The position numbers and the translations under genes are program-made. DNA of 41,926 nucleotides, taken from a virus. The notes below the pieces were generated by a model. That model was not told where the DNA came from, made no database searches, and was given only the letters and a program-made list of their open reading frames with translations. Location: the UHGV virus genome UHGV-0116964. One strand, 5' to 3'. Position 1 is the stretch's first letter, and every line of letters starts with the position of its first letter. Below, piece after piece: positions 2,883 to 15,588 of this stretch.

Positions 2883-5800
2883 TTATGCCTGAGTACGCAG
2901 CGCTTCAAGGCGGCGCAGGTCGAAGTCGTTCAGTTCGTCGGTGTAGTCAGCAGTGATTGGCGCTGGCCATTCACCTGTGTCGAATCCGGTTGCGATATTG
3001 CGCATCGCTTTGCGGTACTCGAGCATACCCAGCTCCAGTAGTTCAGCGGATGCCTCGATGATGGCGATCCAGTGGTAGTTCTCGTCTTTGTTGACGAAAA
3101 TCCAGAAGAACTGATCCAGCGCTGCGGTTTCGCAGTACATAGCCGCGCTCAGGTGATAATCACGTTCAATAATTTCCCGGTGTAGCCTGGCGCGCAGGCT
3201 TTCCTGCTTAACATTCCACATGCTGATGGTTTTCAGGTCAGCACCGATACGCACGCCGTCTAGGTCGATCTCAAGATCAGGGCGCACACGAACTTCCAGT
3301 CCCGTCTCCTCGTCAAAGCCAAAGTAGCTCACCTCAACGGCGCGGCTCGGGTGGGTTAGCAGCATGCCTGCGGTCGGGTGTGCCAGAAGCGCTTTTTGAA
3401 TATTCAGCGCGGTGCTCAGCTGCTGGCGGGTGACCAGCACTTTTCCTTCCGGGTTATCGCGCCAGGCATCCAGCAGTTCGTCGGCAAATACGGCATCTGG
3501 TTTGACTGCCTTCACGGCCTGGATCATGTCTGCTTTGGTACCGGACACTTTCAGTGGTGCCGGTTTCTGTGCTTCCTGAGCCACAAGGTCAGGGTTGATG
3601 ATTGCCAACTGCTCCAGCAGCGCGTCACGGCTGCCGCTGGTTTTAACCGGCGGCGGCAGGGTGGCGTTGTACTCTTTAATGCATGCCTTCATTGCCGTCG
3701 CCGTCTGCTTCTGGTCACCATCAATACGCTGGAAGTCAGCTGGCAGCGCCATATAGTTCTGTGCCGTTTCTTCCAGGTTAGCGCCAAGCGGAACCTGCGG
3801 CGGCAGGGTGGCGTTGTACTCTTCCAGTAACACCTTGATGTCGTCGGCAGACAGCAGCGCCGGCAGGCTGGCATTGTGCTCATCGATAAAGGCGCGCAGG
3901 GTCGCGGCCGTTGTGAATGCGCCTTCAGGGATCACCGGTTCAACGCTGAATTCTGCGTCCAGTAGTTCAGGCTGCAACGCCAGCGCATGCACCAAGTTGC
4001 CCATGTCCAGCACCGCTGAGCGCTCTTTGACGATGGTTTTCTCTACGTGGCGCGCATTGAAGTACATCAGCGAAACGCGCGCATCTTTCACCTGGGTTGA
4101 GCTGATGCCGTTGGCGGCGTGGTAAACCTCGTTTGGCAGCCCTTCATAGCGGCCTGGCTCGAAATAAGCGGGATAAACAACAGCTGGTTCGTCAGATTGC
4201 GCTTCTGGCTCGGTTTGTGCTGCAACTGGTTCGGTTTGGCTTACAGAATCGCTATTTTTGGCGACAGAATCCGTATTCTGGTTTACATCGTCCTTCTGGC
4301 TGGTATCTGACTCTTCACCAGACTCCAGACTGCTTTCGCCTGGCTGTACTTCATCACCAACATTTTTTTCATCACTGACAGTTTCTTGAACCTGCACATT
4401 GCTGGTGGTTTCCGTAGCCTGTTTCGTGCCATGAGTTGCTGAGTTCTGCAGTAAAGCCGTAACATCGAATATTCCGTTGCCGACATTTTTAACCAGTTCT
4501 TGTTCGGCTTTATGTGGTTGTGCTGTCGCTTCCTCTGCGCGGCGGCGTGCTTCTTCTTCACGTACGCGTTGCAGGTTCTCTTCGTGAGTGCAGAAGGATT
4601 TGCGCGGAGACTCCTTACCTTCAGGTTGGGGAATTTCCTGTGCTGCGGGTTCAGCCTCATGCAACGGCAATAACTCGACCGCGGAATTGAACGCGGCTGT
4701 CATGGTCTGGTTAACAAATTCCAGGTGAGCGACAGGAGTTAAATGAATATTTTCCGGTGCGATACGTACCAGGTTAAAAATAGCCGTGCGGTTAACACCC
4801 AGAACGCCTGGCTGATTGCGCAGGATGTTGCTCCATGATTTCCATGGTTCTTCTTTTTTGGTCACGATTTCTTTAGCGCGACGAAGAATGCTGCCCGGGA
4901 TCTCGAAGTGGTTGAAGTCCATAGGCAGAAGGGCACATGCAATCTCTAAATCGAGAGTGTCAAGGGTATGGTATGTATCAGGTCCACGGTCAGTGACGTA
5001 ACCGCCGTTGGCATTGGTTCCGGAATCAGTACGCTGCACACTACTGATGCGATTACCGGCGGCCCATTCGCGAACAAGGATACCGCGGTCGATGTGATCT
5101 GTAGCGAACCACAATTTCAAAAACTGGATTAAGGTTGCGAGTTCAGGGATTTTTCCATCGACAGGGAAGACTTTCTTAACGGCATTCACGACTTTATGAA
5201 TATCGTGCTCAATGGCTTTTTTGAATGCTTCCACATTCTCAGCTGCCAGCAGCAGGTTCTGGACGTACGCGTCATCGGTGTCCATCTCAAGGCGGACAAT
5301 CTCATTTTTCTGCCCTGCGTCGATGTGATAGAGATATTCACCATCACCGATGAACTGAGCCAGTACGCGCTGGCGGAATGGCAGGGTGGCAACAACGATC
5401 AGGTTCGGTTGCTGTGTCTGCTGGGATTGCTCTTCGGTATCGACTTCACCATCAACGACGCCACCTTCTGCCCGGCCGTTCTCGTCGGTCTGGATACCGT
5501 CCTCAACAGTGAGATCTTGACCAGTTGTAACGTCAGCAGCGTTGCTGGTTTCAGTTTTGAGCAACTGCAACTTACCACTGCGCCAGTCTTCTACCAGTTG
5601 ATTGCGGTCACCGGCATCGGTGTTCACCCAGTCAGACATGAATGCAGCGATCAATCTTGGTTCGTGCTCTTCGTCTGGTGTGAAAATGTCCTTAACCGCC
5701 CGAATCATTTTCCACTCAGCATTCAGGCTGAGTTTGGCGGTCGCGGGCACATCGTTCCTTGCCACAAGCAGGCTATGGAGATATGTATTGCCTTCATCCA

Positions 5801-6272
5801 GTGACATTTCGCTGGCAGCCAACTGCTGCTCTTTAGTGACGTGGGTTTGGTATTTATCGTTCATCAGATGGACGGCAAAGCGGACCGCTGGAGTACGGTT
5901 TTCAACCGGGACAATTTCGGACGCAGTCGCATCTTCAACGATTACGGTCGGAGTAGGTGTGTAGGGGGCGTCAACGGAACCAGTAGACACACCAGCGGCT
6001 TTTGGCAGCCAGGTGCGCCCATCGTCCTGAAGCTCGTAGCGATCACACCAGGTAAAATCAACTTCACCTTCTTTCGGCAGACCGTCGACAACTGGGAAAT
6101 CAGTGCGAATCGGTTTGGCGTAGTCCTTACCCCGACCTGTTTCGATACCTGCATCTTCCAGCGCAACATCCAGCATCAGATTGGCGCGAGCCTCGGTTTT
6201 AGCAGTGAACCAGACCACTGCATCTTGCTTTCCGGATTTCTGAGTGGCTTTAACCACATTAAAGAATTCCAT
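2883..6272 (-). CDS. recE: Exodeoxyribonuclease VIII (RecE-like) with long N-terminal extension
   Basis: 1129 aa; C-terminal ~300 aa has the RecE/lambda-Exo-like nuclease look; long acidic/low-complexity N-terminal region; gene order recE-recT as in Rac. Confidence 0.7.
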   Translation of the reverse strand: MEFFNVVKATQKSGKQDAVVWFTAKTEARANLMLDVALEDAGIETGRGKDYAKPIRTDFPVVDGLPKEGEVDFTWCDRYELQDDGRTWLPKAAGVSTGSVDAPYTPTPTVIVEDATASEIVPVENRTPAVRFAVHLMNDKYQTHVTKEQQLAASEMSLDEGNTYLHSLLVARNDVPATAKLSLNAEWKMIRAVKDIFTPDEEHEPRLIAAFMSDWVNTDAGDRNQLVEDWRSGKLQLLKTETSNAADVTTGQDLTVEDGIQTDENGRAEGGVVDGEVDTEEQSQQTQQPNLIVVATLPFRQRVLAQFIGDGEYLYHIDAGQKNEIVRLEMDTDDAYVQNLLLAAENVEAFKKAIEHDIHKVVNAVKKVFPVDGKIPELATLIQFLKLWFATDHIDRGILVREWAAGNRISSVQRTDSGTNANGGYVTDRGPDTYHTLDTLDLEIACALLPMDFNHFEIPGSILRRAKEIVTKKEEPWKSWSNILRNQPGVLGVNRTAIFNLVRIAPENIHLTPVAHLEFVNQTMTAAFNSAVELLPLHEAEPAAQEIPQPEGKESPRKSFCTHEENLQRVREEEARRRAEEATAQPHKAEQELVKNVGNGIFDVTALLQNSATHGTKQATETTSNVQVQETVSDEKNVGDEVQPGESSLESGEESDTSQKDDVNQNTDSVAKNSDSVSQTEPVAAQTEPEAQSDEPAVVYPAYFEPGRYEGLPNEVYHAANGISSTQVKDARVSLMYFNARHVEKTIVKERSAVLDMGNLVHALALQPELLDAEFSVEPVIPEGAFTTAATLRAFIDEHNASLPALLSADDIKVLLEEYNATLPPQVPLGANLEETAQNYMALPADFQRIDGDQKQTATAMKACIKEYNATLPPPVKTSGSRDALLEQLAIINPDLVAQEAQKPAPLKVSGTKADMIQAVKAVKPDAVFADELLDAWRDNPEGKVLVTRQQLSTALNIQKALLAHPTAGMLLTHPSRAVEVSYFGFDEETGLEVRVRPDLEIDLDGVRIGADLKTISMWNVKQESLRARLHREIIERDYHLSAAMYCETAALDQFFWIFVNKDENYHWIAIIEASAELLELGMLEYRKAMRNIATGFDTGEWPAPITADYTDELNDFDLRRLEALRTQA

Positions 6273-6411
6273 GTGAGATCCTCATTTTTGGGTGTTAGAA
6301 TCCCCGGACCATTGATAGCGCCCATTGGGTTAACTTTGGTTTTAATGTTGTTTCCGGTGTAACTTTGGTCGGTACCACCGGACGTAGATCCCGCCTTGCG
6401 CGGGTTTTACG

Positions 6412-6573
6412 TTAGCCTTCGTGAGCCATCTGGTCGTGCGAAGCGCAACGTTTGGAGCAATACTCTTTTTCTTTGCGCGCCAGCTGTGAGCCGTTGCGAT
6501 AGAGAAGGGTGCTCTTGATTACTTCCTCCGTTTTAACCGGCTTGCCGCAATATCCGCATTTCTTGTCTAACAT
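6412..6573 (-). CDS. Small zinc-binding protein (YdaE-like), 53 aa, absent from the ORF track
   Basis: My own translation: MLDKKCGYCGKPVKTEEVIKSTLLYRNGSQLARKEKEYCSKRCASHDQMAHEG; CxxC...CxxxC pairs; GGAGG SD 6 nt upstream; same slot as ydaE next to recE in Rac. Confidence 0.45.
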   Translation of the reverse strand: MLDKKCGYCGKPVKTEEVIKSTLLYRNGSQLARKEKEYCSKRCASHDQMAHEG

Positions 6574-6584
6574 GACATCCTCCG

Positions 6585-6791
6585 CTAGTGGCTGAGTCCA
6601 TGCCCCAGACCGTTCAGATAAACTTCAACCAGCAAATCCTTGGTGTAAGTCATTTCTACGCCGCGATGCAGATACAAACGTCCGCGAGCGTTAGCTGATG
6701 CCGTCCAGGTTGAGTCTTTGTGTTTGACGAGCATCCCCGGCTGAACTGCGCCGCGGTTTACTGTCTGTGTACCGTAGTGCTGATGAACCAT
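6585..6791 (-). CDS. Small early protein at the Kil position, 68 aa (track ORF extends to 6935 via a TTG start)
   Basis: Internal ATG at 6791 preceded by GGAGAA; first gene downstream of the OL-like operator; function not recognised. Confidence 0.4.
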   Translation of the reverse strand: MVHQHYGTQTVNRGAVQPGMLVKHKDSTWTASANARGRLYLHRGVEMTYTKDLLVEVYLNGLGHGLSH

Positions 6792-7036
6792 GATGTTCTC
6801 CAGTTTTTCTGAGTGAACTTCGCTGGTGGTGCCGCGGCGCTGATCTTCACGGTTGAGCGTTTTAACTCTGCAATTCACCACCGCGAAGCTCACTCTGTGC
6901 TTTGCCCTTGTCGCCAGGCTGGCGGAACGTTTCAAACCTACTGCGCGTTAATCTCACCACCTCATTCCGGTCTTCGTATGCCCCGGACGGCTTCTTCGTG
7001 GGCGTCCTGCTTTGGTGGTTGTGTTGATGGAGTAAT

Positions 7037-7072
7037 TAAACACAATGTTTATTTGCGTGTCAACATAATGAG
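7037..7072. promoter_or_regulatory. OL-like operator pair (TAAACACAATGTTTA ... CAACATAATG)
   Basis: Palindrome TAAACA-CAA-TGTTTA is near-identical to the OR site TAAACA-TAA-TGTTTA at about 9107; the two cores are 23 bp apart at both loci. Confidence 0.5.
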
Positions 7073-7175
7073 TGTTTTTATATAAACAAAAAGTTTAGTT
7101 GGTTGCGCTCGTTGGCACGAGTAGTATGTTTTATGGTCTATTTTGTGGTTATAAAAAAATCGATGAGGGTGAGTT

Positions 7176-7382
7176 ATGGATCGTGACGAACTGGAAGAAG
7201 ACCGCGCAGCGTTTATTGCGGGGGAGATTGGTGGCGCAGTTGTCAGTCTGATAGCTAACGGGATTGTGATCAGCCGCGATGCGATTGTGGATAGTCTAGA
7301 GGCTAAGCGCAGGGTAGTGGGAAACGTCATTCACAAGTGGGTATTGCGGGATGCGGTTGCTATGGTGAGAAAAGGGCAATAA
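7176..7382 (+). CDS. Hypothetical 68 aa protein, convergent with the cassette
   Basis: Track ORF with GAGGGTGAG SD; ends in the shared bidirectional terminator; no recognised domain. Confidence 0.5.
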   Translation: MDRDELEEDRAAFIAGEIGGAVVSLIANGIVISRDAIVDSLEAKRRVVGNVIHKWVLRDAVAMVRKGQ

Positions 7383-7412
7383 AAAACCCAGTTCGGTAAC
7401 TGGGTTATTGCT
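7381..7412. terminator. Bidirectional intrinsic terminator
   Basis: AACCCAGTT-CGGT-AACTGGGTT hairpin flanked by an A-run upstream and T-rich downstream; strongest on the minus strand, directly after cassette gene A. Confidence 0.6.
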
Positions 7413-7838
7413 TTATTCAACAGATGATGGGGGGGTCGGTGCTTTCTTAAAGATCGACCACTGAGAAATGTAGGTCAGCAACCTTGAGCTTAACTCGAGT
7501 TCTTTTCGTAATATTTCGTCATAACGTTTTTTTGCTGCTTGCATGGTCGCATCACTAGCGTGATTGTCATCCATAATGATCTTTAGCCTTTTCTTTTCTC
7601 GGCTTGAGCATATTGTAAATAACAGACCTGTAAATGACATTCCACCAAAATCCTTTAACGTTTTGATTACAAAAAGAAGAATCAAAGACAGAAAAGGAAC
7701 AGATCTGTAGGCCCAATCACGAAACTCACCGTCAGGAAAGAAGATAGGAATAGCATCTGTAGCATAACCACATATGAGGGAGACAATTAGAAAAGGTAGT
7801 CCATTTTTAGCTACATTTTTAACGTTATCGTTAGCCAT
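7413..7838 (-). CDS. Cassette gene A: ~141 aa membrane protein (hydrophobic N-terminal half, charged helical C-terminal tail)
   Basis: Track ORF 7413..7871; the ATG at 7838 has a GGGAAA SD and overlaps the gene B stop (ATGGCTAA); AT-rich codon usage. Confidence 0.6.
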   Translation of the reverse strand: MANDNVKNVAKNGLPFLIVSLICGYATDAIPIFFPDGEFRDWAYRSVPFLSLILLFVIKTLKDFGGMSFTGLLFTICSSREKKRLKIIMDDNHASDATMQAAKKRYDEILRKELELSSRLLTYISQWSIFKKAPTPPSSVE

Positions 7839-8214
7839 GATTTTTTCCCGAGAACGATTTCGAGTCAACATGTAACTTTTGTGTTTTGACTACATAATAC
7901 GCAAATCCAATCTTAACTAACCAATAAGCTACTGGTATGAGTGCTGCGTAAAGAGGGATATAGTACATAACCTTACCTCCTGTTAACCACACTATAACAC
8001 CTAGCATCACTATTAGCGCGACAGAAAATGCTTTCAGCCCAACACAGCTATCAGGATGTGAAACACTGTTCCTTAGCAACAATATCCTGGATTCATCAAG
8101 TGTGTAAGGAATATCGCCAACATGATTTTCGATTTTTGGGAAGGTCTCAAATACTTCAACCCGATCAATCGAAATAATTGAGCTTGATTGATGATCTAAG
8201 CAAACTGCAGCCAC
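7831..8214 (-). CDS. Cassette gene B: 127 aa protein with soluble N-terminal part and two C-terminal hydrophobic helices
   Basis: Track ORF; GTG start with GAGGG SD, 2 nt after the gene C stop; AT-rich. Confidence 0.6.
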   Translation of the reverse strand: MAAVCLDHQSSSIISIDRVEVFETFPKIENHVGDIPYTLDESRILLLRNSVSHPDSCVGLKAFSVALIVMLGVIVWLTGGKVMYYIPLYAALIPVAYWLVKIGFAYYVVKTQKLHVDSKSFSGKNHG

Positions 8215-8216
8215 TG

Positions 8217-8540
8217 TTATCCCTCTCGAACCTTTAGTGATACTCGGTTAGCAGCAAATGTGGCAATGAAACCACATTCTACACATATAACAGGGAATGC
8301 CCATATACCTCGGCCAGCTGAATGAGGTAGAGGAAGGGTAATTATTGCAGGATAGTCTTGACTATCTTCTCGTGGAGGAACTCCCCAAAGCGTATGCTTA
8401 CAAAGCGGACAGGCCATCTCGCCATGTTTTTCTTCGAGGCGTTGAAAATAATCTCGAAATTCTTGTCTTGATATTGATAGCGTCAATGCTGTTGTATTGA
8501 CACTTTCCTGACTTTTTTCTTCTTCAACCTGTTCGCCCAT
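8217..8540 (-). CDS. Cassette gene C: ~107 aa zinc-ribbon-like protein (CPLC...CVEC)
   Basis: Track ORF 8217..8552 (TTG start); internal ATG at 8540 with GAGAG SD; two CxxC pairs; acidic N-terminus. Confidence 0.55.
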   Translation of the reverse strand: MGEQVEEEKSQESVNTTALTLSISRQEFRDYFQRLEEKHGEMACPLCKHTLWGVPPREDSQDYPAIITLPLPHSAGRGIWAFPVICVECGFIATFAANRVSLKVREG

Positions 8541-8651
8541 CTCAGCTCTCAATATAATGATAATTAACTGGTAAGTGAATTTTGCATATCGTTAAGATGT
8601 ATCCCATTGGTACAGAAACATCTGAGGGGTAAGTAGCTTTTAACTACCGTG

Positions 8652-9047
8652 CTACTCACCATCCCCCTTAATCCGCCGTCCCATGTACTTGGCGTACAGT
8701 TCATCGAGTTCTTTCAACCGTAGAGATACGATCCGCAACATGTTCTGTTGTTCTTCTTCGTTTGGGAGTTGATTATAGAGTTCCAACAGTCTCCGTTCGT
8801 CGTGTCTCAAACCGTCCTTAGCATCCACGTCCTGACCTAGAACCCACTCAAGACTTACGCCTAGCGCATCGGCAAGTTTTATTGCTGAGCTTTTTCCTAT
8901 CGCTCCTCTGACAAACCAGTTGTTGACTGATTGTGCGCTCACACCACAGATTCTCGCTATATCCGCTTTGGATATGCGCTTCTTCTCGATGATTTCATTT
9001 AACCGCCGAACCTGCGGGTTATCTGTTTGGTGTGTGTTTTTTCTCAT
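8652..9047 (-). CDS. Prophage repressor, DicA/RacR-like HTH (XRE family)
   Basis: 131 aa; N-terminal HTH (ISKADIARICGVSAQSVNNW); C-terminal LLELYNQLPNEEE resembles the DicA tail; divergent from a cro-like gene across operator palindromes. Confidence 0.8.
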   Translation of the reverse strand: MRKNTHQTDNPQVRRLNEIIEKKRISKADIARICGVSAQSVNNWFVRGAIGKSSAIKLADALGVSLEWVLGQDVDAKDGLRHDERRLLELYNQLPNEEEQQNMLRIVSLRLKELDELYAKYMGRRIKGDGE

Positions 9048-9080
9048 ATATCAAGATTCTAAACTAAAAGTTTATCGCCT

Positions 9081-9121
9081 CAACATTCATAATGTTGACT
9101 TGAACATAAACATAATGTTTA
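9081..9121. promoter_or_regulatory. OR-like operator pair with divergent promoters
   Basis: CAACAT-tcata-ATGTTG (about 9081..9097) and TAAACA-TAA-TGTTTA (about 9107..9121); TTGACT -35 at about 9095 for the rightward promoter; TAGAAT -10 on the minus strand 7 nt before the repressor ATG (near-leaderless). Confidence 0.55.
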
Positions 9122-9150
9122 ATTTGGTTCGTTATTACTTGGAGCCAAAT

Positions 9151-9384
9151 ATGAAAGCACTTGATAAAGCAATATGCATCGTAGGGGGTGCAACCCGTTT
9201 AGCAGAAAAGCTCAATGTATCCCCAATGACGGTCAGTCACTGGCGTCACCGTGACAATGGATTCGTACCGGCTAACCGTGTCATTCCTATTTTCAATGCT
9301 ACAGGTGTAACTCCACATGAGTTACGCCCTGATTTGTACCTCAACCCTACGGATGGATTACCGGCTCAGGAAGCGAGGGCATAA
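9151..9384 (+). CDS. Cro-like HTH regulator (YdaS-type)
   Basis: 77 aa from the ATG at 9151 (GGAG SD); MKALDKAICIVGGATRLAEKLNVS...GFVPA pattern; divergent from the repressor. Confidence 0.7.
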   Translation: MKALDKAICIVGGATRLAEKLNVSPMTVSHWRHRDNGFVPANRVIPIFNATGVTPHELRPDLYLNPTDGLPAQEARA

Positions 9385-9386
9385 CC

Positions 9387-9926
9387 ATGCAGTCACTATC
9401 ACTTCATCAAAATAGCGGATATCAAACGGCTGCGATGATAAATCGCAATCAACCTGTCTCGGTAGATAAACATGACCAGATCCGCGATGCCGTTCGTGCG
9501 TGGGCGGGTGTAGATGGTCAGGATGTCGTTTCTGCTCTGATCATCGAAGAGTACCAGGCTCAAGGGGGAGACGAGATCACTTTCCCTGATGACCTCAGCC
9601 GACAGCGTCAGAAGCTTTTCCGCTTTCTGGATAACCATTTCAACAGCGAACGGTACCGCGAAAACGTTCGCCAGCTGACTCCGGCAATCCTCGCTGTCCT
9701 GCCGATTGAATACCGCAATCGTCTGCTACCAGAAGACAACGTAATGGCTCGTCTGGCAAGGCTGGAGAAGGAAACCAGCGAAGCGAAGATTGCTGTCGCA
9801 ATGGATGCGCCACGTCATCAGAAGCTGAAAGAGTTGAGCGAGGGGATCGTGGAGATGTATCGCGTTGACCCTGGGTTAACCGGTCCGTTGATGGAAATGG
9901 TGCAGATTATGCTGGGGGCTATATGA
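9387..9926 (+). CDS. YdaT-like (CII-position) protein
   Basis: 179 aa; immediately follows the YdaS-like gene as in Rac; family assignment from memory only. Confidence 0.5.
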   Translation: MQSLSLHQNSGYQTAAMINRNQPVSVDKHDQIRDAVRAWAGVDGQDVVSALIIEEYQAQGGDEITFPDDLSRQRQKLFRFLDNHFNSERYRENVRQLTPAILAVLPIEYRNRLLPEDNVMARLARLEKETSEAKIAVAMDAPRHQKLKELSEGIVEMYRVDPGLTGPLMEMVQIMLGAI

Positions 9927-10010
9927 CCGGTTCAAAAATGGCGAAAGCCGCGGTGCTCGAACACCAACGGCTTTCAGGTGCAAAAACAGTGCGTAATTGC
10001 GGAGAACAGT

Positions 10011-10919
10011 ATGTCAAACACCGCTGAAATAATCAATTTCCCAAATAAAACCGAACAACCGGGAGGTCGTATGGCCGACCTGTCGAACGGGTATACCAAG
10101 GTCGCTAACGAGATCCAACAGCTTAAGCCTCGCCTGAGACTGTCAGGCCGGGAATGGCAATGTTTTGAGGCGGTGATCTGGCTTACCTACGGCTGGAACA
10201 AGAAACAGGACCGCGTGACAAATACGGTTATTGCCGAGCTTACGGGCCTGAGCGATACGCATGTATCGGACGCGCTTAAGTCTCTCGCAGAACGCAAAAT
10301 CATCTTTTCACAGAAGCAGGGCATGATGAAAATCGTCGGTGTAAACACTGACCTTTCAGCATGGATTTTAGACAAACCGGAAACGGGAAGAAAATTCCCG
10401 AAAACGGGAAAATCCTTCCCGAAATCAGGAATAACCTTCCCGAAAACGGTAGACACCCAATACAAGAACAAGAACAGTATTAAAAGATCTTCGTCCGAGA
10501 ATTCTGACGAATCCTCTGACGCACGTCTGAAGAAATTTTTATCAACTCATCCTGAAGCTGCGGTCTACACACCATCCGGTGCGAAGTGGGGCTCTGCTGA
10601 AGACCTCGAGACAGCTAAGTGGATTTCCTCCAGGGTGAAGCTGATTAACCCAACCTGCAAAGCCCCGGACATGACCTCCTGGTCTAACACTGTTCGCCTG
10701 ATGCGCCAGATAGACGACCGGTCGCACCAGGACATCTGCGCGCTGTATGACTGGGCTAGCAAACACCACTTCTGGCAGACCAACATCCTGAGTCCCGAAA
10801 GCCTGCGTAAGCAGTGGGACAAGCTGACAATGCAGCGTAACGCCGGAGGTGAGCAGCGCGCTGTCAAGCCAGATCTGGACTTCAACAACACTGACTGGGC
10901 CTATGGGGTGATCCGATGA
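10011..10919 (+). CDS. Replication initiator O (lambda O-like)
   Basis: Track ORF 9978..10919; from the ATG at 10011 (GGAGAA SD) the N-terminus MSNTAEIINF...ADLSNGY matches lambda O MTNTAKILNF...ADLDDGY; iterons embedded in the gene. Confidence 0.8.
   Translation: MSNTAEIINFPNKTEQPGGRMADLSNGYTKVANEIQQLKPRLRLSGREWQCFEAVIWLTYGWNKKQDRVTNTVIAELTGLSDTHVSDALKSLAERKIIFSQKQGMMKIVGVNTDLSAWILDKPETGRKFPKTGKSFPKSGITFPKTVDTQYKNKNSIKRSSSENSDESSDARLKKFLSTHPEAAVYTPSGAKWGSAEDLETAKWISSRVKLINPTCKAPDMTSWSNTVRLMRQIDDRSHQDICALYDWASKHHFWQTNILSPESLRKQWDKLTMQRNAGGEQRAVKPDLDFNNTDWAYGVIR
10377..10454 (+). repeat. Origin iterons: four copies of TTCCCGAAAACGGGAA-like units at 21-bp spacing, followed by an AT-rich stretch
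   Basis: Units at about 10377, 10395, 10416, 10437; encode the FPKTG peptide repeats in O; same arrangement as lambda ori inside O. Confidence 0.6.
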
Positions 10920-12542: not shown

Positions 12543-12562
12543 TACTGTATAAAAACACAGTA
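12543..12562. promoter_or_regulatory. LexA (SOS) box TACTGTATAAAAACACAGTA
   Basis: CTGT-N8-ACAG; overlaps a candidate promoter (TTGATC ... TATACT) about 20 nt upstream of the dinI-like gene. Confidence 0.7.
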
Positions 12563-12580
12563 AATGCAATGGGGGCCATT

Positions 12581-12814
12581 ATGAAAGTTGAATTAACCAT
12601 TGATCGCATGAAAGAACTTCCTAAAGGCGCAGTACCAGCACTGGAGAAAGAACTGCTTAAGCGCCTGAATGATCACTATGACAATTGCAGGCTCACAATC
12701 CGCCGTGCCGGGGCCGATGGGTTAAGTGTTTTTGGTGGTGACAAGGACGATAAAAAGAAAATTGAATCAATCCTCCAGGATACCTGGGAAAGCGCTGACG
12801 ACTGGTTTTATTAG
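12581..12814 (+). CDS. dinI: DinI-like protein
   Basis: 77 aa from the ATG at 12581; C-terminal ESILQDTWESADDWF matches E. coli DinI (SEILQETWESADDWF); LexA box upstream. Confidence 0.85.
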   Translation: MKVELTIDRMKELPKGAVPALEKELLKRLNDHYDNCRLTIRRAGADGLSVFGGDKDDKKKIESILQDTWESADDWFY

Positions 12815-12931
12815 AATTGCGCTTAAGGCTGGCGCGCATTTTTCAGAATACCGCAATTTGCGTAACCCTCTGATGCTGCTGCCGACAATCTTTAATCGCG
12901 TCTGTTAGTCGCTCGAAGGGAGAACATAAAT

Positions 12932-13180
12932 GTGAGTGATTCAGCTTTGCAAACGTCAGAAGACAACTGGTATGACATTGTAAGAAGGTCTGACGGCTGC
13001 GTGGTGTTTAGCTTTCCTTCATCGGGCAGGCATCTAATTTATCGCGTCAATGGCATGGTTTCTATGCGGCCTTTGCTGGATGATGAAGAGGTCTTTACTC
13101 CTAATGGTTTTATGCAGTTTATTCACCGTCTCGGCTACCGGGTAACCCCACCTTCTGATAATATGAAATCAACGGTCTGA
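12932..13180 (+). CDS. Hypothetical protein
   Basis: Track ORF (GTG start); no recognised domain. Confidence 0.4.
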   Translation: MSDSALQTSEDNWYDIVRRSDGCVVFSFPSSGRHLIYRVNGMVSMRPLLDDEEVFTPNGFMQFIHRLGYRVTPPSDNMKSTV

Positions 13181-13214
13181 ACAACCGTAACCTACTGCGC
13201 CACGGAGAGAAACC

Positions 13215-13814
13215 ATGGCGCACGAACTACAACTCATCAAGCATTCCTCAGGAATCCTGATCCCCGCTACGCCGGAGACCAGTGATTTACTGCAATCAAA
13301 AATCAAACTCGGCTCCGTACTGGTGGCTGAGTTCCGGCAGGTACGCAACCCGGCCTTTCACCGTCGTTTCTTCGCGTTACTCAATCTCGGTTTCGAATAC
13401 TGGGAACCCACCGGCGGGGCAATCTCCTCCAACGAACGCAAGCTGGTAACCGGCTATGCCAAGTTCCTTGCCTCATTCGCGGGAAGTGAAGCAGCACTCC
13501 TGGATGCTGCTGAGCAATATCTGGACCGCATCGCCGATAAGCGTACTGGTAGCATCTGCGCCTGTAAGTCATTCGATGCATATCGTGCATGGGTCACTAT
13601 TGAGTCCGGCCATTACGACGCCATTCAGCTGCCTGACGGCACCCTCCGCAAACATCCCCGCAGTATCTCATTCGCAAATATGGATGAAACTGAGTTCCAG
13701 CAGCTGTACAAAGCCGCGCTCGATGTTCTGTGGCGATGGATACTCTCCCGATCATTTCGCAGTTGTGAAGAGGCAGAAAACGCCGCCGCCCAGCTGATGA
13801 GCTTTGCGGGGTGA
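13215..13814 (+). CDS. Conserved phage protein of unknown function (nin-region)
   Basis: 199 aa track ORF. Confidence 0.55.
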   Translation: MAHELQLIKHSSGILIPATPETSDLLQSKIKLGSVLVAEFRQVRNPAFHRRFFALLNLGFEYWEPTGGAISSNERKLVTGYAKFLASFAGSEAALLDAAEQYLDRIADKRTGSICACKSFDAYRAWVTIESGHYDAIQLPDGTLRKHPRSISFANMDETEFQQLYKAALDVLWRWILSRSFRSCEEAENAAAQLMSFAG

Positions 13815-14672: not shown

Positions 14673-14805
14673 CATTTGAATCCTGTTTTTCCGATCACCT
14701 CCGCGTTCGCTGGCAGCGGCTTCGCTTATACCACTTTCCCGGCTCTGTGCTAACGGACTACCGGATACTGAAGAATTACGTGAAAACTTATGCTGGAGAA
14801 GCGCT

Positions 14806-15588
14806 ATGAACCTTGAAAACACAGTGAAATACCACTTCGCTAAATCCACACTGATTAGCGATTCTCCGCGCGCTACCGCCTCCGATTCACTGACCGGTAC
14901 CGACATAATGGCTGCCATGGGCATGACGCAGGAACGCGCCGCAATGGGTTACAGCGCCTTCCTCGGCAAGATGGGCATAAGCAATAACGACCGGGATCGG
15001 GCGATCGGTCTGCTGGCTGAGTACGCGATGACAAAATGCGACAAGGTTGCCGCACTGCGTAAGCTCGGTGCCGCGGTTAAACCTCAGGTGATGCACCAGT
15101 TGGCCACCTTCGCTTTTGAGGACTATTCCCGCAGCGCTGCCAGCGTGAAGCAGTGCGATTGTTGTGACGGTCAGGGCTTCATTGAGGCTGACGTGTTTAC
15201 CAATAAATTCCGTAAGCCAGAAGGGAAAATGACCGTGTCCGGGATGGTGAAGGTCAAAGAATCCATCAAAGTGCTATGCAAAAAGTGTAATGGCTCTGGT
15301 GTGGTTAGTGCTTCTTGCAGTGATTGCCATGGGCGCGGCAAGGCAGTGAACCAGGCTCTTACTGAGAAACAGGGCGTTCCTGTTCTGGCTGACTGTAAGC
15401 GCTGCGGAGGGCGTGGGTATGAACGACTTCCGTCGACTGAAGCCTATGCTGCTGTATGCCAGATTACTGACGCCATTAGCCTGGACACCTGGAAAAAGTC
15501 TGTTAAGCCATTCTACGACCTGCTGATCACGAAATTTGATATCGAAGAGTCCTGGGCCGAAAAACAGCTTAAGCAGATAACGCGGTAA
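14806..15588 (+). CDS. Late-gene antiterminator Q-like protein with four CxxCxGxG zinc-finger repeats
   Basis: 260 aa; position between rusA and the lysis genes; followed by a terminator about 100 nt downstream. Confidence 0.6.
   Translation: MNLENTVKYHFAKSTLISDSPRATASDSLTGTDIMAAMGMTQERAAMGYSAFLGKMGISNNDRDRAIGLLAEYAMTKCDKVAALRKLGAAVKPQVMHQLATFAFEDYSRSAASVKQCDCCDGQGFIEADVFTNKFRKPEGKMTVSGMVKVKESIKVLCKKCNGSGVVSASCSDCHGRGKAVNQALTEKQGVPVLADCKRCGGRGYERLPSTEAYAAVCQITDAISLDTWKKSVKPFYDLLITKFDIEESWAEKQLKQITR

Follow-up and report, generated by a model that had tools for sequence, protein, structure and literature searches.

The window analysed here, the whole 41,926-nucleotide stretch of the virus genome UHGV-0116964, carries the same short palindrome on either side of a repressor gene, which raises the question of whether these are the left and right operators of a lambda-like switch and which protein would act at them. 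The sequence evidence set out below indicates that the palindromes are very probably OL and OR operators bound by the 131-aa repressor of a Rac/Gifsy-like E. coli prophage; the design of such a switch is well known, while this immunity type is uncharacterised. Coordinates are collected in Table 1.

Table 1. Putative operators, predicted promoters and neighbouring features of the immunity region and the LexA-dinI-irsA module.
Feature	Position	Strand	Description
kil, cell-division inhibitor	6585-6791	-	first gene of leftward operon; phrog_294, E 2e-34; from annotation
PL leader	6792-7030	-	about 240 nt; common to different immunity types; long hairpin just upstream of kil
Predicted PL	7035-7063	-	TTGACA (7063-7058), 17 bp, TTTAAT (7040-7035); toward kil-ydaE-recE-recT
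OL1	7037-7051	.	TAAACACAATGTTTA; overlaps PL -10; seen in 79 related loci, outer pentamers invariant
OL2	7060-7074	.	TCAACATAATGAGTG; half-consensus; 23 bp to OL1 and 23 bp to OL3
OL3	7083-7097	.	TAAACAAAAAGTTTA
Conserved non-coding element	7122-7159	+	right of OL3; kept in 41/57 distinct variants
68-aa ORF	7176-7382	+	convergent with cargo; position of sieB in Rac; phrog_3975, E 1e-33
Bidirectional intrinsic terminator	7385-7406	.	divides repressor/cargo transcript from OL/PL
Cargo cassette, three ORFs	7413-8552	-	36-41% GC
Cassette ORFs	7413-7871 and 7831-8214	-	hydrophobic segments
Cassette ORF	8217-8552	-	two CxxC motifs
131-aa repressor	8652-9047	-	N-terminal HTH_3, no peptidase domain; GtgR/GfoR-type
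Predicted PRM	9056-9083	-	TTGAGG (9083-9078), 16 bp, TAGAAT (9061-9056)
OR3	9060-9074	.	TAAACTAAAAGTTTA; within PRM spacer
OR2	9084-9098	.	CATTCATAATGTTGA; abuts PRM -35, overlaps PR -35
Predicted PR	9095-9123	+	TTGACT, 17 bp, TTTAAT
OR1	9107-9121	.	TAAACATAATGTTTA; perfect palindrome; overlaps PR -10
Cro analogue, 77 aa	9151-9384	+	YdaS family; PF15943, E 8e-16; PDB 3bd1 Cro
CII analogue	9387-9926	+	YdaT family; PF06254; phrog_163; 38% identity to CP-933P YdaT
LexA box	12545-12560	+	CTGTATAAAAACACAG; 20 bp upstream of dinI
dinI	12581-12814	+	from annotation
82-aa ORF	12932-13180	+	antirepressor position, between dinI and irsA homologue
irsA/DUF1367 homologue	13215-13814	+	84% identical to Gifsy irsA

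Operator sites and promoters

The first-pass annotation had placed matching 15-mers near 7037 and 9107, each with a second CAyAATG core 23 bp away, and had likened the arrangement to the OR and OL of lambda. The motif search that it proposed recovered both 15-mers, as OL1 and OR1, and found four exact matches to TAAAC-N5-GTTTA in the window where 0.02 were expected, a count that none of 100 shuffles reached; all four are confined to the OL and OR clusters. The paired cores lie exactly 23 bp apart on each side (7041 and 7064, 9088 and 9111), but the count of two sites per side had to be raised to three, as O3 is present in both clusters. The resulting order is O1-O2-O3, repressor, O3-O2-O1, with a spacing of 23-24 bp, mirrored around the repressor gene and overlapping promoters, and the comparison with lambda geometry stands. 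By itself CAyAATG is not enriched in the window (17 found, 13.5 expected), and in relatives the middle site conserves TCAAC and ..ATGA rather than this core; on both grounds, the second applying to OL2, it was rejected as the defining motif. The register of O2 is ambiguous, and the site can be read as a 15-mer in the 23/24-bp phase or as a 19-bp palindrome at 9080-9098.

The TCAAC arm of OL2 is the -35 hexamer of PL on the opposite strand. Both PL hexamers are conserved across related loci, as are the TTG and TAxAAT of PRM, and only 8 nt, without a Shine-Dalgarno sequence, separate PRM from the repressor ATG. The predicted -10 of PL and PR is without the A at -11 that is usually essential, and a consensus promoter scan, which accepts only -10 hexamers with A at position 2, missed both promoters for that reason; TAATTx was considered as an alternative -10 but discarded, as its last base is not constant among relatives. 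In the conserved element to the right of OL3, a TAGAT-like box (TAGTAT) stands at a fixed +24 from O3 and is followed by ...GGTCTATT..TGGTTATAAAAA, and the element is likely a rightward promoter or 5' UTR. Rfam gave no match at gathering score over 6000-10000, and the search for a YdaT-type site, TTGATT-N6-AATCAA, gave four matches against 2.1 expected, none of them convincing.

Conservation among related loci

The comparison covered 84 loci with a repressor at least 93% identical, among which there are 48 distinct OR and 57 distinct OL sequences. The OR sites are retained at a fixed offset in 83 of the 84, and a pair of OL sites 46 bp apart is found in 79 of these 83, at 391-2880 bp past the repressor stop codon; in the remaining four the contigs stop 0-854 bp after the repressor gene. 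Absence of the 7037 copy from phages with the same repressor had been named beforehand as an observation that would count against control of both sides by one repressor, and what the relatives show is its presence in the 79 loci. There is little or no variation in the site blocks (OR1 is unchanged in 47 of the 48 distinct OR sequences, with a single T-to-C change in locus L077), and the 6-8-bp spacers between them vary freely.

The likeness of the two regions might instead reflect common descent of PL and PR as duplicated promoters, in which case the palindromes would belong to the promoters and not be bound by a repressor. On each side the -35 is indeed within or adjoining O2 and the -10 within or adjoining O1, and part of the conservation could therefore be promoter function. 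We nevertheless consider this explanation very improbable: in 79 loci O3 is conserved, always 46 bp from O1, although it lies outside PL; those outer pentamers of O1 that do not belong to the -10 hardly vary; and the motif switches as a unit with repressor type (described below) with TTGAC left unchanged. It is hardly credible that a nucleoid protein of the host binds the palindromes, or that they serve for recombination at the boundaries of mosaic modules. They are AT-rich, and OL1 falls exactly at the start of the sequence common to all immunity types, but a host-factor site would not change with the type of phage repressor, and six constant sites separated by variable spacers, with helical-phase spacing over promoters, make the pattern of operators.

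Immunity types and the repressor

At least five immunity types occur in this repressor family, and each has a distinctive palindrome that is found at OR as well as at OL. They include TAAAT-N5-GGTTTA / TAAACC..ATTTA (L005, PHB10), GTAAAGC-N3-xTTTAC (L039, mEp237, ST846phi9.2), TTAAG-N7-CTTAA (L014, SEN34) and ATAAAG/C..TTTAT (Kp4865-4). Related repressors with a different helix-turn-helix are accompanied by a different palindrome at OL and OR alike, and a paralogue 64% identical to the repressor differs from it mainly in the helix-turn-helix (HTH). Wherever the cro-proximal repressor differs, OL and OR change jointly to another palindrome, and this joint switching in at least five types is the operator specificity for the cognate repressor by which heteroimmunity is recognised. 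Together with the OL copy in 79 of 83 loci, it supports the earlier suggestion that one repressor serves both sides.

The sites could in principle be bound by the YdaS-type Cro only, the 131-aa protein acting elsewhere or differently. The operators vary with Cro as closely as with the repressor, and the HTH segment of Cro is retained among loci with this operator set; because both proteins co-vary with the sites, comparative data cannot separate binding by one from binding by the other. Two loci, L005 and L039, have the 131-aa gene without these sites, but the operators that they do have fit the cro-proximal paralogue, which is what a separate operator set for each repressor would predict. In characterised lambdoid switches, that of CP-933P included, repressor and Cro share sites (PMC8630535), and the right operator of Gifsy-2 is shifted by GtgR (PMC3121763). 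Binding by Cro only is in our judgement very improbable, and we retain the 131-aa repressor as the most likely protein at these sites.

The 131-aa gene of L005 and L039 is a second HTH gene whose own operators are absent from the locus, and copies 72% and 60% identical in phages mEp237 and SEN34 are likewise without their own operators. In all four cases another repressor is the cro-proximal one, and the gene follows it after 20-30 bp. It is possible, though doubtful, that the 131-aa repressor is here also cargo, with two repressors per PRM transcript and immunity to a second, heteroimmune phage group. The two repressors of L005 are near-identical in the C-terminal domain, so a common antirepressor, or mixed oligomers, might be conceivable. 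A literature search for orphan second repressors gave nothing relevant, and one for mEp237 matched DOI strings only.

Proposed switch

In the switch that we propose, dimers of the 131-aa repressor would bind 15-bp palindromes with the consensus TAAACAT-A-ATGTTTA. OR1 and OR2 would cover PR, the promoter for cro, the ydaT-like gene, O and P, with OR3 inside PRM, and OL1 and OL2, about 2 kb to the left of the repressor, would cover PL. Because the palindrome is best in O1, agrees with the consensus in one half of O2 and is reduced to the outer pentamers in O3, we infer that O1 and O2 would be filled first, and cooperatively, turning PR and PL off. O2, whose centre is some 42-44 bp upstream of the PRM start, could then stimulate repressor synthesis, and O3 could limit it, possibly aided by looping between OL and OR; the YdaS-type Cro would be expected at the same sites. 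The repressor message is predicted to be leaderless or nearly so and probably runs on through the cargo genes to the terminator at 7385-7406, which would shield kil against read-through. The cargo may not depend on PRM, since a promoter-like site precedes the cassette at 8579-8551. Induction would proceed as in the Gifsy phages, through a LexA-controlled dinI-antirepressor-irsA operon (12545-13814), a route suggested because the repressor is without an autocleavage domain.

Comparison with known switches

In lambda the order is OL1-3, rexB-rexA-cI, OR3-1 and cro, with 17-bp sites, a leaderless repressor message, about 2 kb between OL and OR, and cargo followed by a terminator between the repressor gene and OL. 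The window shares with it three mirrored operators per side at 23-24 bp, O1 and O2 over PL and PR, O2 beside the PRM -35 and O3 inside PRM, the cargo and terminator between repressor and OL, the distance of about 2 kb and a predicted leaderless repressor message. It differs in its 15-bp sites, in the YdaS type of its Cro and the YdaT type of its CII, and in having no N gene, PL leading through the 240-nt leader to kil. Whereas cleavable repressors like lambda cI and LexA have a C-terminal S24 peptidase domain with an Ala-Gly site and a Ser/Lys dyad, Pfam found no such domain in the 131-aa protein, with HTH families the only matches, and RecA-mediated cleavage is therefore not expected; no PDB relatives of this protein were found.

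A characterised analogue in layout is CP-933P / Sp12 of E. coli O157:H7, for which footprints, a leaderless repressor gene, repression of PL/OL by PaaR2 and YdaS, and four inverted repeats in OR have been reported (PMC8630535). Both systems have a short non-cleavable CI analogue, an OR with repeated palindromes (about 100 bp in CP-933P), PL and OL1-3 beyond a cargo downstream of the repressor (paaA2-parE2 in CP-933P), a small convergent ORF adjoining OL, and a YdaS-type Cro and YdaT-type CII downstream of PR. The YdaT proteins are homologous (E 2e-12). PaaR2 is an analogue of the repressor and not a homologue (BLASTP E 3.5), the window Cro has no pairwise similarity to CP-933P YdaS (E 0.42), and the operator half-site is GTTTAGTAA in CP-933P as against ATGTTTA in the window. 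Equating the convergent ORF of CP-933P with the 68-aa ORF was rejected, as the two are unrelated.

Homology of the repressor itself leads to the Gifsy phages, where the repressors of Gifsy-1, -2 and -3 (GfoR, GtgR and GfhR) are subject to LexA-controlled antirepressors (PMC3121763). The 131-aa protein aligns to Gifsy-2 GtgR over its full length (27% identity, E 1e-9, residues 1-117 aligned), and the two are of similar size (a class of about 130-140 aa), with an N-terminal HTH and no cleavage motif. The order LexA box, dinI, irsA, downstream of the replication genes and with a small ORF before the irsA homologue, is that of Gifsy-2. The window differs from Gifsy in its operators and immunity specificity, and the 82-aa ORF at the antirepressor position is not similar to GftA and belongs to another family; its co-occurrence with the repressor could be followed in only eight loci, those in which the 5-kb flanks extend to dinI. 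Gifsy-2 of LT2, unlike the window, lacks a slot for cargo between repressor and OL, and its OL/OR repeats were not resolved by the repeat finder.

Gene order and strands are the same as in the Rac prophage of E. coli K-12 (kilR, sieB, ydaF, ydaG, racR, ydaS, ydaT), with a rightward gene (sieB in Rac) beside the control region nearest kil and with cargo encoded on the same strand as the repressor. RacR is longer, at 158 aa against 131 aa, the kil leader has no nucleotide similarity to Rac, and the Rac small RNA KilS has no detectable counterpart.

The accessory gene slot

The interval from repressor to OL, which the first-pass annotation had defined as a slot for prophage-expressed genes, is a highly variable cargo slot among the relatives: it has 51 distinct lengths in 80 loci and holds 144 ORF clusters of unrelated cargo, nearly all of which, large ORFs included, lies on the repressor strand. 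The slot also contains the small convergent ORF and the bidirectional terminator. Cargo in relatives includes BstA, HicAB, kinases and SIR2, and the candidates for defence or toxin functions are BstA, HipA-like, SIR2, PD-T4-6, HicB and PDC, with a BstA homologue in the same slot in one relative.

A slot for accessory genes downstream of a prophage repressor has been described previously; in BTP1 cI-bstA, defence or accessory genes lie directly downstream of the repressor and are transcribed from its promoter (PMC8585504, PMC7067206), with cargo expression in the lysogen demonstrated (PMC7067206). For the mosaic hotspot between repressor and N, both papers cite Degnan 2007. The cargo in the window is likewise directly downstream of the repressor, but unlike that of BTP1 its three-gene cassette matches no described defence family, and Pfam, PADLOC and PHROG gave no informative match.

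Significance for lambdoid immunity

These results leave the current understanding of lambdoid switches unchanged. What they provide is an operator map, six sites and three predicted promoters, for an uncharacterised Gifsy/Rac-like immunity type that is present in E. coli, Citrobacter, Klebsiella and Raoultella. The related repressors with changed operators form a small natural series for studying how immunity specificity evolves, and the bracketed slot is a defined place in which to search for prophage-borne defence genes, the unclassified three-gene cassette included.

Probable Operator Sites and Their Conservation

The first-pass annotation had described two copies of a 15-mer palindrome, TAAACA-yAA-TGTTTA, each with a CAyAATG core 23 bp away, and read them as left (OL) and right (OR) operators; both 15-mers and both cores were found exactly where it had placed them. 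The core is not enriched by itself, however (17 occurrences versus 13.5 expected), and the part of this second site, O2, that is conserved in relatives is a different one, TCAAC plus ..ATGA. The palindrome TAAAC-N5-GTTTA has exactly four matches in the 41.9 kb, versus 0.02 expected, and no shuffled sequence gave four. All four fall within the OL and OR clusters, which reveals a third site on each side (7083-7097 and 9060-9074) that was overlooked when two were proposed. The clusters mirror each other about the repressor gene when both are read away from it, with centre-to-centre spacings of 23/23 bp in OL and 24/23 bp in OR.

Features of the immunity region and neighboring genes (window positions)
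Feature	Position	Strand or direction	Details
recE	2883-6272	minus	order int, recT, recE, ydaE, kil, all minus strand
isrB-like match	6314-6410	plus	between recE and ydaE
kil	6585-6791	minus
PL leader	6792-7030	minus	240 nt
Predicted PL	7063 to 7035	leftward	TTGACA-17-TTTAAT
OL (O1-O3)	7037-7097	minus	outward from repressor: TAAACTTTTTGTTTA - CACTCATTATGTTGA - TAAACATTGTGTTTA
Non-coding element	7122-7159		right of OL3; xAGTAT, then GTTTTnnGGTCTATTnTnTGGTTATAAAAA
Predicted terminator	7385-7406	bidirectional
Cassette, three genes	7413-8552	minus
Repressor gene, 131 aa	8652-9047	minus
Predicted PRM	9083-9056	toward repressor gene	TTGAGG-16-TAGAAT
OR (O1-O3)	9060-9121	plus	outward from repressor: TAAACTAAAAGTTTA - CATTCATAATGTTGA - TAAACATAATGTTTA
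Predicted PR	9095 to 9123	rightward	TTGACT-17-TTTAAT
LexA box	12545-12560		20 bp upstream of dinI homologue
82-aa ORF	12932-13180		phrog_340, unknown function; between dinI and irsA homologues

The comparison set comprised 85 loci encoding close repressor relatives and several annotated prophages and phages. In 83 of the 84 loci with a repressor at least 93% identical, the OR pair is present at an unchanged distance from the ATG. Absence of the 7037 copy beside the same repressor had been named as evidence against the operator reading; the OL pair, 46 bp apart, was found 391 to 2880 bp past the repressor stop codon in 79 of the 83 OR-bearing loci, and the contigs of the remaining four end 0-854 bp after the repressor gene. 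Comparison of 48 distinct OR and 57 distinct OL sequences showed little or no change within the three site blocks, against free variation in the 6-8-bp spacers and outer flanks, and Klebsiella phage ST974-OXA48phi18.2 follows this pattern.

In loci whose cro-proximal repressor is another member of this family, both operator sets have changed in concert: the OL and OR palindromes are TAAAT-N5-GGTTTA / TAAACC..ATTTA in comparison locus L005 and phage PHB10, GTAAAGC-N3-xTTTAC in locus L039, mEp237 and ST846-OXA48phi9.2, TTAAG-N7-CTTAA in locus L014 and SEN34, and a further variant in Kp4865-4. The paralogue in L005 shares 64% identity with the window repressor; most differences fall in the helix-turn-helix, and the C-terminal domains are nearly the same. 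Cro proteins of loci with the window's operators (60% to 100% identity) keep the segment SxMT(V/I)SHW(R/K)xR, a segment that is different in L039 and L014. The sequence shared by every immunity type starts directly after the PL -10, where the border of a lambdoid immunity module would be expected. The palindromes are real and, judging from these sequence comparisons, the OL/OR interpretation is well supported.

Tandem HTH repressor genes were observed in L005 (2837-3665), L039 (4514-5396), L007 (mEp237; 3014-3893) and L098 (SEN34; 3090-3902), where a window-type 131-aa repressor (98-99% identity in L005 and L039, 72% in mEp237, 60% in SEN34) is encoded 20-30 bp behind a different, cro-proximal repressor and only the operators of the latter are present. 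This arrangement, found in 1 of 12 E. coli genomes carrying the window-type repressor, could confer dual immunity.

Predicted Promoters and Non-Coding Elements

PL and PR are alike in having the -35 inside O2 and the -10 overlapping O1. One reservation is that their -10, TTTAAT, is without the usual A at -11, though it is kept in relatives; a shifted alternative, TAATTx, was rejected, being, unlike TTTAAT, not conserved there. The predicted PRM has O3 in its spacer and a -35 abutted by O2, and is separated from the repressor ATG by only 8 nt, without a Shine-Dalgarno. Measured from the likely PRM start, the centre of O2 lies about 42-44 bp upstream, and that is where lambda repressor acts to activate PRM. 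We infer repressor binding, looping and the promoter starts.

In the conserved non-coding element beside OL, 41 of 57 distinct variants have xAGTAT at a constant +24 relative to O3. The element is retained ahead of small convergent ORFs from at least three unrelated families and probably serves as a rightward promoter or 5' UTR. O3 would be centred near -44 of this putative promoter, so that activation by OL3-bound repressor is conceivable. The PL leader is conserved among different immunity types and in 87 E. coli genomes; directly ahead of the kil ribosome-binding site it has a hairpin with a 20-bp stem (z = -2.2). A small RNA, KilS, is annotated in the equivalent kilR leader of K-12 Rac, with which the window leader shares no sequence similarity. 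The isrB match in Rfam was sub-threshold (28.6 bits; E 0.025; gathering score 35). Gifsy-2 encodes a small RNA named IsrB-1 (PMC7067206).

Gene Layout, Repressor Family and Induction

Several E. coli strains carry, next to kch and cls, chromosomal prophages that match the 2.5 kb around the operators and repressor with 100% identity. Beyond kil come a control region, a plus-strand 68-aa ORF, a terminator, and three cargo ORFs and the HTH gene on the minus strand, then a second control region and the plus-strand genes cro (YdaS-type), a cII analogue (YdaT-type), O and P; the layout is the same in Rac (K-12) and Gifsy-2. In an identical E. coli prophage, L001, the O-like replication gene (L001:12112-13020, ~window 10011-10919) and the Q-like antiterminator (L001:16866-17675, ~window 14765-15574) are RefSeq pseudogenes with internal stops, so this prophage may be defective; window ORF 9978-10919 is open.

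HTH_3 is the sole domain of the repressor, for which no relatives of solved structure were found. Its alignment with Gifsy-2 GtgR is full-length (27% identity, E 1e-9); it has no similarity to CP-933P PaaR2 and by family belongs with the Gifsy repressors. Gifsy prophages are induced via a LexA-controlled dinI-antirepressor-irsA operon (PMC3121763), and the window has the same order: its only perfect LexA box precedes a dinI homologue, the 82-aa ORF, and a homologue 84% identical to Gifsy irsA. The 82-aa ORF occupies the antirepressor position but is unrelated to GftA, so its putative antirepressor role is a matter of position only.

The closest analogue studied by experiment is CP-933P, the locus of which was itself inspected in this analysis. 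There, PaaR2, encoded by a leaderless gene, footprints a 97-bp OR; the paaA2-parE2 cargo is followed by PL and OL1-3; and the roles of Cro and CII fall to YdaS and YdaT (PMC8630535).

Cargo Between the Repressor Gene and OL

The slot between repressor gene and OL is highly variable, with 51 distinct lengths from repressor stop to OL3 among 80 loci and 144 ORF clusters among relatives. With few exceptions the large ORFs share the strand of the repressor gene, and a small convergent ORF adjoins OL in most loci. Slot representatives match BstA, HipA-like kinases, SIR2, the PD-T4-6 kinase, HicB, several PADLOC candidate systems and IS1; HicAB occupies the slot of E. coli WEM25. In ST974-OXA48phi18.2 an IS1 is inserted in the slot (L006:2769-3495), and the repressor gene is annotated 'putative repressor Cro'. 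The hotspot is already known from the literature: the repressor-downstream position is mosaic and houses rexAB and bstA, with cI-bstA forming one operon (PMC8585504, PMC7067206).

The window cassette has 36-41% GC versus 50-55% in its flanks and encodes three proteins, none matching a Pfam or PADLOC family: one has two CxxC motifs, the others hydrophobic segments. It is rare, being present in 5 of the 5426 complete E. coli genomes, and its sole phage homologues are in PHB10, there too directly behind a related repressor. The terminator is predicted to end both the cargo transcript, the expression of which is presumed, and that of the 68-aa ORF. We regard the cassette as a candidate module for exclusion or abortive infection of an uncharacterised kind. 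The switch would work like those of CP-933P and lambda, and the region belongs among ordinary lambdoid immunity regions, with an uncharacterised immunity type.
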